Source: Kordia sp.
Lineage (GTDB): Bacteria > Bacteroidota > Bacteroidia > Flavobacteriales > Flavobacteriaceae
NCBI GenBank assembly: GCA_002733415.1
Contig: NVVR01000002.1
Coordinates: 1 to 64,000 of the forward strand
Reading direction: 5' to 3'
DNA length: 64,000 nt
The notes under the pieces are model-generated. The model was not told the origin of the DNA, did no database searches, and saw only the letters and a list, made by a program, of their open reading frames with translations. This document shows positions 9,636-23,729 of the stretch, one piece after another (within the stretch, counting starts at the first letter, position 1; each line of letters opens with the position of its first letter). A program made the position numbers and the translations under genes.

Positions 9636-10661
9636 TCAGTCAGGCTCATTTGTGTTATAAAGCGCTAAAGCAGTTCGTAACTTATAGTTTACTCTTTTTT
9701 TCAAACGTTCTGGCTGAATCACTTTCATGCTTTCCCCAAACCCTAAAATCAGACGTTCCAATTCGTAATTAATTTTTACCTTGATGTTAATGTCAACACT
9801 TCCATTAAGATACTGATGTTCTATAGTTTGTGAGTGGTGTAAAGGTTTGGTAACAACATAAGGAGCATTACTTTTATCAATCCATATTTTAATATTGCAT
9901 GCACGTTCTCCTTGATTAACAGTTACTCCAATAGCATCTTTATAAAATGTATCAGGATCAAAACCTTGATCTAGATACGCTGTTTTTAAATCATAATCAA
10001 TACTGATAATTCTATCTAAAGCTAAATTAGAAACACCATTTGATCCAGCTCTTTTACCAACTAAGAACCAACGGTTGTTATATTCTTTTAAGATATACGG
10101 ATGAAATGTAATTTCAGAAGAATCTTTAGCTTTAAAAGATTTATAGGTTAATTTAATAACAACTTTTTTAAGAATGGCTTGGTATAACTCATCTAAGTAC
10201 TGTAGGCCTTTTAAATTGTCATTCTTATCTAAATGAATAATAGACTGATGGTCTTTTTGTGAAGAATAAACAGAATCTTCTAATCGTTGAAGTACACCGT
10301 CCATTTCTTTAAATAAGGAGAAGTCTTTAAATTGTCTCAATACCGCAATGGCTTCACTCATTACTTTTATATCATTATCAGTTACTGGAATATTCATAAT
10401 ACTATAGGCTGTATCAGTATAGCGATAATATTTTTTGTCGTACACTTCAATGGGTGCGTTATAGCCTAATTTGTCACTACGCATCAACTGTATGTCTAAT
10501 TGTACAGTACGCTTACTAACATTAATGTCTTTTCCTTCATATTCATAAAGGGCATCTGAACAGGCTTCAATTAAATCATTCAAAGTCCATTGCTTATAGT
10601 TGTTGCGTAAACAGTTATCAATGGTTTTGTATCGTATCAGAGCATTCTTATTAGCAGCCAT
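9636..10661 (-). CDS. WYL-domain transcriptional regulator (wHTH-WYL-WCX architecture)
   Basis: N-terminal HTH-like region. Classic WYL motif FHPYILKEYNNRWFLVG. C-terminal WCX-like segment PLHHSQ...LERLILGFGESMKVIQPERL. Confidence 0.75.
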   Translation of the reverse strand: MAANKNALIRYKTIDNCLRNNYKQWTLNDLIEACSDALYEYEGKDINVSKRTVQLDIQLMRSDKLGYNAPIEVYDKKYYRYTDTAYSIMNIPVTDNDIKVMSEAIAVLRQFKDFSLFKEMDGVLQRLEDSVYSSQKDHQSIIHLDKNDNLKGLQYLDELYQAILKKVVIKLTYKSFKAKDSSEITFHPYILKEYNNRWFLVGKRAGSNGVSNLALDRIISIDYDLKTAYLDQGFDPDTFYKDAIGVTVNQGERACNIKIWIDKSNAPYVVTKPLHHSQTIEHQYLNGSVDINIKVKINYELERLILGFGESMKVIQPERLKKRVNYKLRTALALYNTNEPD

Positions 10662-10662
10662 T

Positions 10663-11301
10663 TTATCGTTTATTAATTAGTTCTATTTCAGATTTTAAGT
10701 TAGTTCTTGCTATATCTTCATATTTGTTTTTAAAGATAGCTGTAGTAAAAATTGATTTTTTGTTAAGAAAATGTTCTAATACTTTTTTACGCCCTTTATA
10801 ATAAATGATATTTGGGACTGTTTTGTATTCAGTACGTATCTTTTTAGTGTAGTCAAGATATACTTCCCATGATTGGCCAAGTATTGCTAAATCAAAATCA
10901 ATTAAAAAAGAAGTGTCATTGGAATTTGATGTATGTGTTTTGGTAGCTAATATGTGTGCTGTAATGTTAGCCGTATTTACATTTTGTAATTTCAATTTAT
11001 TTAATACTTTAACTGCAAAATCAGCACTTTTTTCTTCATTATCTTTTTTCCAAACATTGTAGATAATGTCATGATAAAATATAGCTAAGATAAATTCTGT
11101 TAGGTCTTCAATTTCCGAACTGTACATGTCTAGGTAACTAAACAGTTCATTTAAATGCGTTAAATTATGATAGGCTCTAAACGATTCAGAGTAATGTTTG
11201 TGTAAGCCTTCCCATAATTCTTCAATAACAGTTTTGTCTGTTGTATACTTTAGGAACACTTTTTCAAAGCGATTTTTTAACTCCATTTGAATAAATTTCA
11301 T
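10663..11301 (-). CDS. HD-domain metal-dependent phosphohydrolase. It is in an operon with the WYL regulator.
   Basis: The H...HD motif (YHNLTHLNELF ... IFYHDIIY). Its stop is 1 nt from the WYL start. Confidence 0.6.
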   Translation of the reverse strand: MKFIQMELKNRFEKVFLKYTTDKTVIEELWEGLHKHYSESFRAYHNLTHLNELFSYLDMYSSEIEDLTEFILAIFYHDIIYNVWKKDNEEKSADFAVKVLNKLKLQNVNTANITAHILATKTHTSNSNDTSFLIDFDLAILGQSWEVYLDYTKKIRTEYKTVPNIIYYKGRKKVLEHFLNKKSIFTTAIFKNKYEDIARTNLKSEIELINKR

Positions 11302-11322
11302 TAAAAGTAACGAAATAATTTA

Positions 11323-11345
11323 ACTACGCAAAAAGACTGCGCAAT
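11323..11345. promoter_or_regulatory. Palindromic operator-like motif ACTACGCA-N7-TGCG(Y)A, copy a, in the divergent promoter region
   Basis: actacgcaaaaagactgcgcaat. Related copies are at 12784-12806 (perfect) and 22997-23023. Confidence 0.4.
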
Positions 11346-11385
11346 AAGGTCGAATATTTGTACTGTTATTAAAAAAGAAATAAAA

Positions 11386-12774
11386 ATGAAAGTCACAGGA
11401 AAGACATTAATCGATTTAGGATTTAGAGAGGGAAGATGGTTTAAGGATGCATTAGCACATATAAATGAGAACGAACTTGAGGGAGAATTACTAACGAATT
11501 ATTTAGATCAATATAAAATGCCGCCAATTCAAGAGCTACATAAAGAAGCAATGGCATTTTCGATAAATATAAAAGCAGAAAATGAATTAGAGGCACAAAA
11601 TGTTGATTCAGTAGTATCCTCCATGGAAAAATTAATGCGAACACCAACAGTAGTTGATGGCGCTATTATGCCAGATGCTTGTCCGGCAGGACCATCAGGA
11701 ACTATACCAGTGGGTGGAGTGGTAGTGACAAAAAATGCAATTCACCCAGGAATGCATAGCGCAGATATTTGCTGTTCTGTGATGCTGACAGATTTTGGAA
11801 AAGCAGATCCTAAAGAAGTGTTAGATGCTGCACATGAAAGCACTCATTTTGGTCCAGGAGGAAGAAGTAGAGAACATCAGTTCCGATTCCCTGATGAGTT
11901 GTTAACCGCGTTTAAAAGTAATTTTTTCTTAAACAATGATAGGTTACTAGGAATGGCCAGAACTCATTTAGGGACCCAAGGAGATGGAAATCATTTTTTG
12001 TTTGTAGGGAAATCGAAGAAAACAGGGAATACAATGATGATTACACACCATGGGTCAAGAGGACCAGGAGCATTGTTGTATAAAAGAGGAATGCAGATTG
12101 CGGAGCAATTTAGAAAGGATATTTCTCCAGAAACCTTAAAGCAAAATGCTTGGATTCCATATAACACTGAAGAAGGGGAGAAATATTGGGAAGCATTGCA
12201 AATAATGAGAACCTGGACTAAGAAAAACCATACCTGTATTCATGATGCTGTTTGTGAAAAAGTAGGAAAGCTACCTGAGGATAGGTATTGGAACGAGCAT
12301 AATTTTGTGTTTAAAAAAGGAGACTTGTTTTACCATGCCAAAGGAGCTACTCCATTAGATGAAGCATTTATGCCAGATATTACAGGTCCAAGATTGGTTC
12401 CTTTAAATATGTCGGAACCAGTGTTAATTGTTTCGGGAAAAATTACTGCGAACAATTTAGGATTTGCACCTCACGGAGCAGGTAGAAATATGAGTAGAAC
12501 ACAACATAAAAAGACGAAAGCGGAATTCACCAATGAGGAAGTTTTTGCCTTGGAAACAGAAGGTTTGGATGTGCGTTTTTATTCTAATGAAATTGATGTT
12601 TCTGAATTGCCAAGTGCCTATAAAAATGCAGGAAATGTAAGAGCTCAAATGGAAGAATTCGGTTTAGGAGAAGTGATTGATGAAGTAATGCCATATGGTT
12701 GTATCATGGCTGGAGATTTTCAGAAAAATGCGCCGTGGAGAGTGAAAAGAAGAAATAGACATAAGAGAAGTTAA
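11386..12774 (+). CDS. Divergent paralog of the RtcB-family RNA 3'-phosphate/2',3'-cyclic-phosphate ligase
   Basis: The RtcB metal-site motifs are present: D.C (HSADICCSV), [19 protein letters not shown] and [10 protein letters not shown]. The usual PDAH motif reads PDACPAG (His to Cys). There is an N-terminal extension of about 90 aa. Confidence 0.85.
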
Positions 12775-12783
12775 ATAAAGATA

Positions 12784-12806
12784 ACTACGCAAAATGACTG
12801 CGTAGG
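12784..12806. promoter_or_regulatory. Palindromic motif ACTACGCA-aaatgac-TGCGTAG, perfect copy, between the rtcB paralog and the NTase gene
   Basis: An 8-bp inverted repeat with a 7-nt spacer. It could be a DNA operator or an RNA stem-loop. Confidence 0.45.
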
Positions 12807-12843
12807 TTGTTTTCATCTTTGACAGGTAATTAAAAAAGAGAAA

Positions 12844-22907: not shown

Positions 22908-22980
22908 GGTGTTTTCAGCTTATTTGGTAAAGTGCTAGACTGTGAATCTAGAGAACAGGGTTCGAATCCCGAAAACACCC
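22908..22980 (+). tRNA. tRNA-His (anticodon GTG) with an encoded G-1
   Basis: Extra 5' G. Acceptor gtgtttt/aaaacac. Discriminator C. D-arm gctt-atttggta-aagt. Anticodon arm ctaga-ctGTGaa-tctag. The T-stem is imperfect. Confidence 0.6.
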
Positions 22981-22996
22981 AAAATTAAAATAACCT

Positions 22997-23023
22997 ATAC
23001 TACGTAAAATGATTGCGTAGTAG
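22997..23023. promoter_or_regulatory. Palindromic motif, copy c (actacgta-aaatgat-tgcgtagt)
   Basis: The same ACTACGCA-N7-TGCGTAGT family as at 11323 and 12784. Confidence 0.4.
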
Positions 23024-23220
23024 GGTGGGAAGTTTGTAATGTAATTAAAAGCTAATAATAAGTTTAAAGGTTTTGTGTTCTTTTAAACGTTTAAATATCA
23101 AGCTAGTCTTGTTGGGTGTTTCTGTATAGCACTATTGTATAAAGTATTGCAATGATTTTGTATGATGACTTTATATTCAACTAGATTTGGAGGTTTTAGA
23201 TTGTTTACCAAAAAATAATC

Positions 23221-23258
23221 ACACACTGTGGTCATGGGTTCGAATCCCATCCTCATTA
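23221..23258 (+). other. tRNA 3'-half relic (T-arm atggg-ttcgaat-cccat plus acceptor 3' cctcatt-a)
   Basis: There is no matching 5' acceptor strand upstream. Confidence 0.45.
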
Positions 23259-23259
23259 A

Positions 23260-23316
23260 GTTGAGGTAGTTCAGTTTGGTTAGAACAACAGCGTAGATGT
23301 CGTCGGTTCGAATCCG
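23260..23316 (+). other. Chimeric tRNA relic: acceptor 5' plus D-arm (gttc-agtttggtta-gaac) joined to a T-arm (gtcgg-ttcgaat-ccgat), with no anticodon arm
   Basis: Only 12 nt separate the D-arm from the T-arm, and the acceptor strands do not pair. Confidence 0.4.
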
Positions 23317-23342
23317 ATCTTAAACTTTGGAGAAATCCATTG

Positions 23343-23385
23343 GTTTATGTAGCTCAACGGTAGAGCACTACACTCTTTTAGGTAG
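23343..23385 (+). other. tRNA 5'-part relic (acceptor, D-arm gctc-aacggta-gagc, and an anticodon-like arm). No T-arm follows.
   Basis: A D-arm with GG and an anticodon-like stem ctac/gtag. No ttcgaat follows. Confidence 0.4.
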
Positions 23386-23729
23386 AGAGAACAATAGACT
23401 CAAAATCTATTTTCAAAAAGCTGATTATCTTTTTAAACTAATCACCAGCCAGTCACGCTGTAAAATTGATAAAATAATGGATTGAAAATCAGCTATGCTT
23501 TGTAAGCACAAGTGTTTTAAGTGAAGCAATCTTAAATGTACTTTGAATAACTGATTTTTAGTATTGTAAAGGAATTACTTTTTGAGTTTTCTAATGATAG
23601 TTAGCTATTATATATAATTTTCAAAAATGGATTCTTGACAGTTATAATATGAGTGTATTCCGTATGTAAAAGATGATTTTCTTTCTGTTGTTTTTAATAA
23701 ATTAAAGAAACTAAGTAATAAATAGAATA

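Follow-up and report, generated by a model that had tools for sequence, protein, structure and literature searches.

A modular island of RNA-repair, ribosome-rescue and tRNA genes in Kordia sp. with two predicted regulatory circuits

Why would a bacterium keep two RNA ligases of the RtcB family, a release-factor homologue and a run of additional tRNA genes side by side, and what would call such a set into action? The question is raised by a stretch of 64,000 nucleotides (nt) from Kordia sp. (Flavobacteriaceae; GenBank assembly GCA_002733415.1, contig NVVR01000002.1, positions 1 to 64,000 of the forward strand), hereafter the window, in which an initial annotation made from the sequence alone had marked positions 9636 to 23420 as a composite RNA- and ribosome-damage response island. 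It touches on two open problems, namely the purpose of supernumerary tRNA arrays in bacteria and the induction of PrfH-RtcB2 operons. Here, gene identities were established by Pfam, NCBIfam (TIGR) and Protein Data Bank (PDB) comparisons, tRNAs and other RNAs by ARAGORN and Rfam, and repeats by TRF; open reading frames (ORFs) were scanned for domains from position 3355 to 29979. Our reading, to which we give a probability of roughly two in three, is that of a modular island, exchanged within the Flavobacteriaceae, that would answer damage to the translation apparatus by means of three blocks of genes and two regulatory circuits. The island extends from 9636 to 24830, running past the end first proposed to an SPFH/Band-7 gene (23730-24830), which had been overlooked together with a YrlA-like, tRNA-mimicking RNA.

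The first block groups RtcB2, a PrfH of the PrfH-CT subfamily, a tetratricopeptide repeat (TPR) protein, a small nucleotidyltransferase (NTase) and a DEDDh exonuclease. In this block, PrfH would free ribosomes that have stalled because the 16S decoding centre is nicked or because the A site is empty of mRNA, and RtcB2 would reseal the rRNA, functions that have been demonstrated in homologues and that we infer for the window. The second block, with RtcB1, two RlaP nucleotidyltransferases and a DUF434/DUF5616 protein, would trim, rebuild and reseal broken tRNAs or other RNAs; in relatives, the place of DUF434/DUF5616 is taken by a CCA-adding enzyme, a phosphoesterase or an Rnl2 ligase. The third is formed by a putatively supernumerary tRNA array, the YrlA-like tRNA mimic and the SPFH/Band-7 protein. 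Two circuits cut across this gene order, so that a description as two tandem RtcB operons understates the anatomy of the locus. In circuit A, a WYL regulator would control RtcB1, RlaP and the YrlA-like/Band-7 unit through a 21-nt repeat. Circuit B, predicted to serve both RtcB2-PrfH and the tRNA array, is laid out as a small ORF, a terminator, a structured spacer, a promoter, a second small ORF and a second terminator.

Comparison with related loci carries much of this reading. Four Kordia-like metagenome contigs (L081 to L084), with a PrfH 90% identical to that of the window, share its flank and a core composed of SSB, WYL, RtcB1, RlaP, RlaP2, RtcB2, PrfH, TPR, the tRNA array and Band-7. A CCA-adding-type enzyme takes the place of the accessory genes of the window, and a 212-amino-acid (aa) ORF, DUF434/DUF5616, the small NTase and the exonuclease are absent; the array comprises 10 tRNAs, ordered as in the window. 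The Bizionia locus (L001, Bizionia sp. CANMCF010000004) contains WYL, RtcB2-NTase-ZnR-PrfH-TPR-phosphoesterase, 15 tRNAs, an RNaseH-like gene, an Rnl2-type ligase and RtcB1. In Maribacter forsetii (L086), both RtcB modules occur (WYL/RlaP/RlaP2/RtcB1/CCA-enzyme/RtcB2/PrfH/TPR) without an array, and in Aquimarina mytili (L085) only RtcB2-PrfH-TPR-exonuclease is found, in an unrelated context. In Ca. Endobugula (L012), a gammaproteobacterial symbiont, 12 tRNAs are interleaved with RtcB, Band-7, a phosphoesterase, a CCA-enzyme and RtcB-PrfH. About 21 of the 80 loci recovered by the contig search were true PrfH, the rest being generic release factors (pattern PGGQ[NH]VNK), and the Aquimarina and Maribacter loci were added one by one; the remaining true PrfH loci from other taxa had no co-oriented tRNA array. 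The varying content and context of these loci indicate a variable, modular island and not conserved core synteny, a distinction that the initial annotation had proposed to check. Altogether, the combination of a tRNA array with repair genes was found in more than 15 independent contigs from two phyla, and its recurrence across genera indicates that the association is not due to chance.

A second line of evidence is provided by the two non-coding gaps of about 1.2 kb that precede RtcB2 and the tRNA array, each of which holds one copy of the same module of about 250 nt. Searches of both gaps for a GOLLD/ROOL-like RNA gave no match; leader modules and a 150-nt repeat are what they contain. Module copy 1 (15864-16105, + strand) comprises a terminator hairpin (AGCGTCCA..TGGACGCTTTTTT), a covarying hairpin and a promoter of the Bacteroidetes type (TTG-N20-gACCTTTGCA). 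It is preceded by small ORF 1 (15774-15833, +; MTIFLNIKRTLKSYFDCKK), whose sequence includes GGACGCT, a complement of the terminator's 5' arm. Copy 2 (21093-21340, +), ahead of the tRNA array, likewise follows its own small ORF 1 (20938-21057, +; MNQNRIHIAPKSLFNQCDYRQVSELPTREGAFCVYCYKN). The module also stands before RtcB2 in Aquimarina, Maribacter and L081, and before arrays in L081 and Bizionia. A metagenome scan with the module hairpin, filtered by a profile of the whole module, yielded 22 further contigs with the full module, three of which have RtcB2-(NTase)-PrfH-TPR downstream and 12 of which have tRNA genes, with only a TPR gene or the end of the contig following in the rest. Counts of module-linked tRNAs range from one, at a contig end, to 24, and a TPR paralogue sometimes intervenes. 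Because the association recurs in several genera and the module is common to RtcB2-PrfH and the arrays, the view that there is a functional connection between the tRNA array and the repair genes, already put forward by the initial annotation, is supported.

The architecture of the module suggests how it might work. Small ORF 1 encodes 17 to 42 aa, and in most instances its stop codon lies 22 to 44 nt before the hairpin and its U-run. The complementary segment (GGACGCT, GGGCGTT or GGATGCT) is found within the small ORF, 45 to 61 nt upstream of the hairpin, and its variants are all G.U-compatible. The predicted duplex between this segment and the terminator arm averages -11.6 kcal/mol, compared with -6.2 kcal/mol for shuffled sequences, and 21 of 24 instances clearly outperform their own shuffles. 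The internal hairpin of the module shows compensatory changes, and a near-consensus promoter (TTG-N19/20-TTTG) lies downstream of terminator 1. A second small ORF with its terminator was present in 10 of the 11 cases examined. Before RtcB2, this second leader (16337-16474, +) encodes 27 aa (MTLF...LLCMLRDFIRK), or 35 aa if started from the ATG at 16313, and ends in a conserved terminator (16439-16474); it also gives a sub-threshold Rfam match resembling Thr_leader. Its peptide keeps ..L(R/Q)DF.. despite synonymous codon changes. The second leader of the array (21358-21575, +) has a 54-aa small ORF and a terminator at 21545-21575. The codons GAU-UAU-CGN (Asp-Tyr-Arg) are kept in the array leader, with synonymous variation at Arg. 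A purely codon-based explanation of the QCDYR motif of the array leader was discarded: the motif partly overlaps a covarying hairpin (CACTG..CAGTG), so that the codon-level argument holds only for GAU-UAU-CGN. From these features, we predict that the leaders are attenuators that sense translation.

Circuit A is defined by the 21-nt inverted repeat CTACGCAAAAnnAyTGCGyAg, which occurs three times in the window, with no copy expected, and always within the island. All copies lie on the sense strand and are followed, 10 to 12 nt later, by a TTTG box and then by a conserved leader, GTAATTAAAA. In Bacteroidetes, the consensus of the -7 promoter element is TAnnTTTG; the TTTG box resembles this element, and the repeat occupies the expected -33 position. 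The first operator-promoter unit (11324-11375, +; inverted repeat CTACGCAAAAAGACTGCGCAA, -7 box aATATTTG, conserved leader) is found upstream of RtcB1, with its repeat 42 nt before the start codon. The second (12785-12836, +), with the perfect inverted repeat CTACGCAAAATGACTGCGTAG, lies between RtcB1 and RlaP, and the third (23000-23048, +), 20 nt past tRNA-His, heads the YrlA-like RNA/Band-7 unit. The unit was found again in L081 (before RtcB1, the CCA-enzyme gene, RlaP and the RNA that follows tRNA-His), in Maribacter (before RlaP and RtcB1) and in Bizionia (before RtcB1, the WYL operon and a GOLLD-like RNA). The motif was present in four genera and, over the 2.3 Mb of loci searched, stood nearly always beside RtcB, RlaP or WYL genes where the neighbours were identifiable. 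Two of the leaders, those of Maribacter (4465-4560, before RtcB1) and Bizionia (15903-16000, before the GOLLD-like RNA), also share the short motif GTAGYGCTCTGCC.

The WYL gene nearly always points away from the first copy of the repeat. This arrangement, together with the -33 position, led us to read the repeat as a candidate operator of the WYL regulator, and the operator logic of regulators with the HTH-WYL-WCX organization, such as PafBC, fits this reading. In the window, the WYL-WCX transcription regulator is encoded at 9636-10661 on the minus strand, divergent from RtcB1, and the divergent gene is kept in L081, L001, L086 and L122. Its WYL and WCX domains (PF13280 and PF25583) were both recognized, which bears out the initial call, with a weaker outcome for its N-terminal helix-turn-helix (HTH) part, matched by HTH_11 at E=0.039. 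A function of the 21-nt motif as an RNA hairpin, prompted by G.U-compatible variants and one compensatory variant, was considered and set aside, the fixed -7 box and leader being a better fit to an operator-promoter; an RNA role for the motif may exist.

The protein genes of the first block are well defined. RtcB2 (16599-18008, +) matches Pfam RtcB over its full length with 282 bits, and the two RtcB paralogues announced by the initial annotation were thus recovered, RtcB1 scoring 125 bits. Coupling of RtcB2 to PrfH is borne out by adjacency and not by the curated TIGR03073 (release_rtcB) model, against which it scores 148.1 bits (cutoff 271.8); the Bacteroidota RtcB2 proteins form a separate branch with 47-85% identity. 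The PrfH gene (18031-18723, +) was confirmed by TIGR03072 (231.5 bits, cutoff 166.65), by its GGQ motif (GPGGQNVNK) and by comparison of its 230-aa product with the solved PrfH structure 9mor (283 bits). The latter alignment runs through residue 225 and includes a K/R-rich tail, which places the protein in the PrfH-CT subfamily, defined by an extra basic C-terminal tail past a PrfH core of about 200 aa (PMC12829566). PrfH-CT, the subfamily of Flavobacteriia, is present in most members of this class, and experiments have established that it rescues damaged as well as non-stop ribosomes (PMC12829566). The status of RtcB plus PrfH as an established rescue and repair pair, Flavobacteriia included, on which the initial annotation relied, is thus sound for homologues. 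Downstream are genes identified by profile matches, for a TPR protein with a lysine-rich tail (18728-19279, +), paralogues of which also precede tRNA arrays in relatives, and for a DEDDh 3'-5' exonuclease of the RNase_T family (19850-20443, +), as initially proposed, which also follows PrfH-TPR in L085, L131 and L133. Between the two lies a putative 181-aa NTase of the Pol-beta type (19281-19826, +), with weak Lnu and NTP_transf_5 matches and orthologues between RtcB2 and PrfH in L001 and L206. An association of this NTase class with PrfH-RtcB has been described (PMC6514570).

In the second block, RtcB1 (11386-12774, +) is a divergent ligase (47.9 bits against TIGR03073, cutoff 271.8) that has retained the catalytic D/C/H/H/H residues, with DxxC, GNHF, HxGSRG and HGAGR aligned to the RtcB of P. 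horikoshii. It is followed by an RlaP nucleotidyltransferase (12844-13590, +; PF10127, 236 bits, full length) and by a second RlaP-like protein, RlaP2 (13587-14657, +; 96 bits), in which PF10127 covers only the N-terminal half and the C-terminal 230 aa or so are uncharacterised. The RlaP-RlaP2 pair is kept in L081, L086 and L113. RlaP is known to add nucleotides to RNA ends (PMC12776372). Two of the three Pol-beta-type NTases initially listed are thus confirmed by profile matches, the third, in the first block, being assigned by weak matches and by a position shared with relatives. The block closes with an accessory cassette encoding a DUF434+DUF5616 protein (14733-15446, +), for which the initial idea of a possible NYN (or PIN) nuclease is conjectural; profile searches matched only these two Pfam families, PDB comparison gave no hit and the AlphaFold2 (AF2) model had a predicted local distance difference test score (pLDDT) of 42; the gene is absent from L081 and occurs in L103 and L113.

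The array itself (21773-22980, +) reads Cys-GCA, Tyr-GUA, Asp-GUC, Pro-like, Leu-UAG, Arg-ACG, Gln-UUG and His-GUG. ARAGORN detected seven tRNAs (Cys, Tyr, Asp, Leu-UAG, Arg-ACG, Gln and His), and Rfam added two tRNA-like matches, at 22209-22277 (Pro-like) and 23260-23326. These numbers agree with the initial count of at least eight tRNA genes accompanied by tRNA-derived repeats; its placement immediately downstream of the protein genes needs correction, the first tRNA lying 1.3 kb past the last ORF. Runs of this kind, co-oriented and closely spaced, comprise 7 to 9 genes in the window and 10, 15 or 24 in relatives, and their distribution is sporadic, with none at the Aquimarina and Maribacter PrfH loci. 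The members that recur most constantly are Asp and Tyr. The largest related array, in the metagenome contig Ga0189286_100035 (L113, module-oriented positions 9712-12947), lies downstream of DUF434/DUF5616, RlaP and RlaP2, and its 24 tRNAs, including one called as tRNA-SeC(UCA), come near to a full decoding set. Most array tRNAs form normal cloverleafs (Rfam 50-67 bits) and retain identity elements, such as G-1:C73 in His, U73 in Cys, G73 in Asp and a long arm in Tyr. Among 109 distinct island tRNAs, however, 12 have U37, all of them Asp-GUC or Glu-UUC, including the tRNA-Asp of the window (22123-22196); their loops read CUGUCUC and CUUUCUA. U37 was found in none of 89 control tRNAs from unrelated loci, and none of the controls had a pyrimidine at this position. 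Moreover, the length of eight of the nine island 'Leu' tRNAs, 74-76 nt, leaves no room for the long variable arm of bacterial tRNA-Leu. These short 'Leu' tRNAs, with anticodons UAG and UAA, were found in the window (Leu-UAG, 22534-22609, 76 nt), L081, L001, L088, L113 and L117. Such atypical members fit a special-purpose role, possibly as nuclease-resistant replacements or as decoys. Other parts of the array are degenerate: alignment to L081 revealed a decayed tRNA-Ser remnant (21624-21760, +) where relatives have intact Ser-GCU and Ser-UGA, and TRF found 3.2 tandem copies of an 80-nt unit (22264-22529, +) that goes back to the 3' part of the Pro-like tRNA together with a hairpin and is single copy in L081.

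Past the third operator-promoter unit, a composite tRNA-mimic RNA (23205-23420, +) combines a YrlA-like permuted module (T-arm, hairpin, D-arm) with a second T-arm and a second D-arm/anticodon-like arm. In Rfam, it scores 33.8 bits against YrlA (RF02553), below the gathering threshold of 69, and 37.3 bits against tRNA. The core of the YrlA alignment has a high posterior probability and the mismatches fall in the outer stem; with this sub-gathering score and the Ro-binding stem unmatched, the RNA resembles YrlA and falls short of membership. Among the ORFs scanned, no Rsr/TROVE (Ro) gene was found. All arms of the RNA are kept in L117 through compensatory changes. The SPFH/Band-7 protein (23730-24830, +; Pfam Band_7, 92 bits), encoded 300-500 nt downstream of the RNA, occupies the same position in L081 and L117, the latter version being 77% identical, and L012 has a 39% identical protein. 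In L081, the operator-promoter that follows tRNA-His precedes an element of about 165 nt (14073-14233), deleted in the window and 81% identical to L001 17018-17182. This element has an acceptor-like stem as well as a T-arm (ATCCCTT...GACAGTTCGAATCTGTCAAGGGAT) and resembles a long tRNA-like RNA.

How might these parts act together? When the leaders of circuit B are translated normally, the terminators would form. Should ribosomes or particular tRNAs be disabled, the segment within the small ORF could pair with the 5' arm of the terminator and allow read-through, and the array might then supply replacement tRNAs and possibly decoys, with Asp and Glu loops that, owing to U37, may escape anticodon nucleases. 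In a bolder form of this proposal, which we advance tentatively and consider doubtful, the leaders would be an alarm for attacks on decoding, in which stalls at nicked decoding centres or at codons of cut Asp, Tyr or Arg tRNAs would free the antiterminator and induce PrfH-RtcB2 together with nuclease-resistant tRNAs (U37, class-I-sized Leu). These three tRNAs are named on account of the GAU-UAU-CGN codons of the array leader and of the constancy of Asp and Tyr in the arrays. If true, this would be the first natural circuit that senses tRNA or ribosome damage by a leader peptide and answers it with toxin-proof tRNAs. The toxins concerned may be of the colicin E3/E5/D type, as the initial annotation had suggested from gene content.

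Several observations weigh against parts of the proposed scheme and have to be set beside the competing explanations. Under minimum free energy (MFE) folding with a sliding 30-nt ribosome mask, the terminator was almost always formed and the antiterminator only sporadically; we count this result as unsupportive, while noting that equilibrium folding cannot settle a kinetic switch. A strong promoter-like element stands between terminator 1 and the payload, so that the first small ORF and its terminator may form a unit of their own. The invariance of the module hairpin is partly a matter of ascertainment, as the hairpin itself was the search pattern. For circuit A, binding of the WYL regulator to the inverted repeat is deduced from position. 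In the array, the Ser remnant, the weak Pro-like gene and the tandem repeats point to decay and to relaxed selection on some members, and non-translational roles could equally lie behind the class-I-sized 'Leu' tRNAs and U37. The folding result and the near-consensus promoter would also suit a simpler account, in which the small-ORF/terminator units are plain insulating terminators and promoters and any co-regulation comes from the shared promoter or from a protein that binds the spacer, the more so as conservation of small ORF 1 is partly due to the RNA hairpin and not to codons. Yet it speaks against plain insulation that the sequence of terminator 1 is kept across genera with a complementary, G.U-tolerant segment at a fixed position upstream, that small ORFs stand in frame before both terminators, and that synonymous variation occurs within kept peptide motifs (LRDF; the Arg codon in DYR), and although this account deserves serious attention we think it on the whole unlikely.

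The atypical tRNAs invite another explanation, which partly overlaps with ours, namely that the array members divert tRNA-targeting toxins, as decoys or sponges, or serve RtcB or Band-7 as RNA cofactors or scaffolds, along the lines of proposals made for Y RNAs and the 'band-7-associated tRNA'. The tRNA mimic directly upstream of Band-7, published proposals of tRNA-like cofactors for RtcB systems and of a sponge role for array tRNAs, the non-canonical U37 Asp/Glu and 74-76-nt Leu, and the decayed copies and tRNA-fragment repeats of the window would all be in keeping with it. Normal cloverleafs and synthetase identity elements in most members are not, and arrays close to a full decoding set are hard to explain for a cofactor, so that we judge this explanation improbable. 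Phages bring along tRNA arrays and RNA repair enzymes with which they overcome the anticodon nucleases of their hosts. An origin as cargo of a degraded prophage or mobile element, its remnant retained by the host, could be argued from the RlaP and Rnl2-type ligases of T4-like phages, from RlaP2-like genes in two viral contigs, from the GOLLD-like RNA beside the Bizionia array, and from the patchy content and differing genomic contexts of close relatives. However, the ORFs flanking the island include no integrase, capsid or terminase, its guanine-plus-cytosine content equals that of its surroundings, its promoters are of the host (Bacteroidetes) type and PrfH-CT is widespread in Flavobacteriia. 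Among 2.9 million viral contigs, neither the ~250-nt module nor the Band-7 gene had a counterpart; the hairpin pattern was found in 14 of them, none with the module. A viral origin was accordingly rejected as a working hypothesis and appears very unlikely. As for chance proximity of a housekeeping tRNA cluster to the RNA repair operons, bacterial tRNA clusters are common, and one Pseudomonas PrfH locus is indeed near an unrelated Val/Asp cluster on the opposite strand. Against such an accident stand the recurrence in independent contigs of two phyla, the module common to the array and RtcB2-PrfH, the embedding of the array between repair genes and Band-7, and its atypical tRNAs, and we give coincidence hardly any credit. 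The modular, damage-responsive island described above is thus the reading that we retain.

Other features of the locus are more peripheral. A short SSB paralogue of 111 aa (9158-9493, +; Pfam SSB, 115 bits) lacks the C-terminal tail and adjoins the WYL gene in the window, as it does in L081; it holds the same position in L081-L084 and is absent from the Bizionia and Maribacter loci, which leaves its membership of the island uncertain. Since single-stranded nucleic acid activates some WYL regulators, the SSB may have a functional link to the regulator. Co-oriented with the WYL gene, the 212-aa ORF (10663-11301, -), absent from L081, had been taken for an HD phosphohydrolase. An H..H..HD-like motif is visible by eye, but Pfam and NCBIfam searches gave no HD match even at E<=5, no PDB relative was found and the AF2 model has a pLDDT of 49, so that the assignment is conjectural. 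A direct repeat of 150 nt trails the two cassettes that are missing from the closest relative, copy 1 (15456-15603) directly after DUF434/DUF5616 and copy 2 (20562-20711), 82% identical, after the NTase and DEDDh genes; it may be a mark of cassette exchange, or a small mobile or terminator element. To the right, Band-7 adjoins a TPR + AraC-type HTH regulator (24943-26577, -), which is not kept beside the island in L081 and is therefore probably unrelated.

The Bizionia locus adds one more RNA. A match to GOLLD RNA (RF02032), a class mostly seen in phages, was obtained at L001 16426-16903 with 135 bits (gathering threshold 150, E=1e-35), about 500 nt downstream of an operator-promoter unit, between the Rnl2-type ligase and RtcB1 and 1.5 kb past the array of 15 tRNAs. 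Neither the window nor any of 22 other related contigs yielded such an RNA. If real, it would tie a large RNA to an RNA repair regulon.

With more than 20 related contigs, in which both payloads lie behind one leader, the island makes an idea based on guilt by association testable on defined elements. If confirmed, RNA repair, rescue of stalled ribosomes and tRNA replacement would be one inducible bacterial programme, and the leaders would offer compact, portable sensor elements for translational damage.

Most single parts of the island have already been described. The RtcB2-PrfH pair resembles the modules of E. coli ATCC 25922 and, for PrfH-CT, Capnocytophaga gingivalis, in the adjacency of the two genes, the GGQ motif and the basic tail. 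In contrast to these modules, the pair of the window is extended by the TPR, small NTase and DEDDh exonuclease genes and lies behind tandem small-ORF/terminator leaders within a larger island, and its RtcB2 falls below the TIGR03073 cutoff. The accretion of TPR and Pol-beta NTase genes to PrfH-RtcB is likewise known (PMC6514570), and a Band-7 gene with a tRNA-like RNA ('band-7-associated tRNA' or YrlA) beside RtcB has been predicted, according to work that cites the prediction. As far as it can be followed through such citing sources, the parts list of Burroughs and Aravind (NAR 2016; IJMS 2019) comprises RlaP, WYL, Band-7 with its 'b7a-tRNA', Ro/Y RNA and PrfH with TPR and a Pol-beta NTase. 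The window resembles it in having RlaP by a ligase, TPR and NTase genes on PrfH-RtcB, and Band-7 by a tRNA-like RNA in the neighbourhood of RtcB, the feature by which 'b7a-tRNA' is recognized and which is kept in L081 and L117. Arrays of 7 to 24 tRNAs, the 250-nt leader module and the operator motif do not figure in these systems as the citing sources present them; the RNA next to Band-7 in the window is a composite YrlA-like mimic, and no Ro/TROVE gene accompanies it among the ORFs scanned. It shares with YrlA the permuted order of T-arm, hairpin and D-arm and the RtcB locus, and differs from it in its sub-threshold score, its unmatched Ro-binding stem and its extra T- and D-arm modules.

The closest parallel for the array is found in cyanobacteria, where supernumerary tRNA arrays of sporadic distribution have a functional link with rtcB and a slipin/Band-7 gene. 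In Anabaena, the tRNA array, rtcB and the slipin gene form one regulon, repressed by the ribbon-helix-helix protein TrcR and induced by translational stress. Those genes are dispersed and TrcR binds direct repeats, whereas in the window the genes are clustered, a WYL regulator and predicted attenuators would take over the control, and PrfH and RlaP join the set. The array of the window is co-oriented, closely spaced and sporadic, as are tRNA L-arrays (Santamaria-Gomez et al. 2021). L-arrays are normally silent and come on under translational stress, a behaviour that the layout of the cis-elements hints at for the window. The leaders, in turn, recall leader-peptide attenuators of the trp type and the ribosome-stalling leaders of antibiotic-resistance genes, with a short ORF, an intrinsic terminator and an ORF segment complementary to the 5' arm of the terminator. 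They would depart from known attenuators in their payload, a ribosome-repair operon or a tRNA array, and in the tandem arrangement of two units with a promoter between them; our literature searches turned up no account of rtcB/prfH being controlled by a leader or attenuator, nor any of the module of about 250 nt. The initial view that the combined architecture had not been described must therefore be qualified, since several combinations of its parts have been published. What appears to be new is the fusion of the three blocks in one place, with two shared cis-regulatory units, predicted attenuators and atypical anticodon loops.

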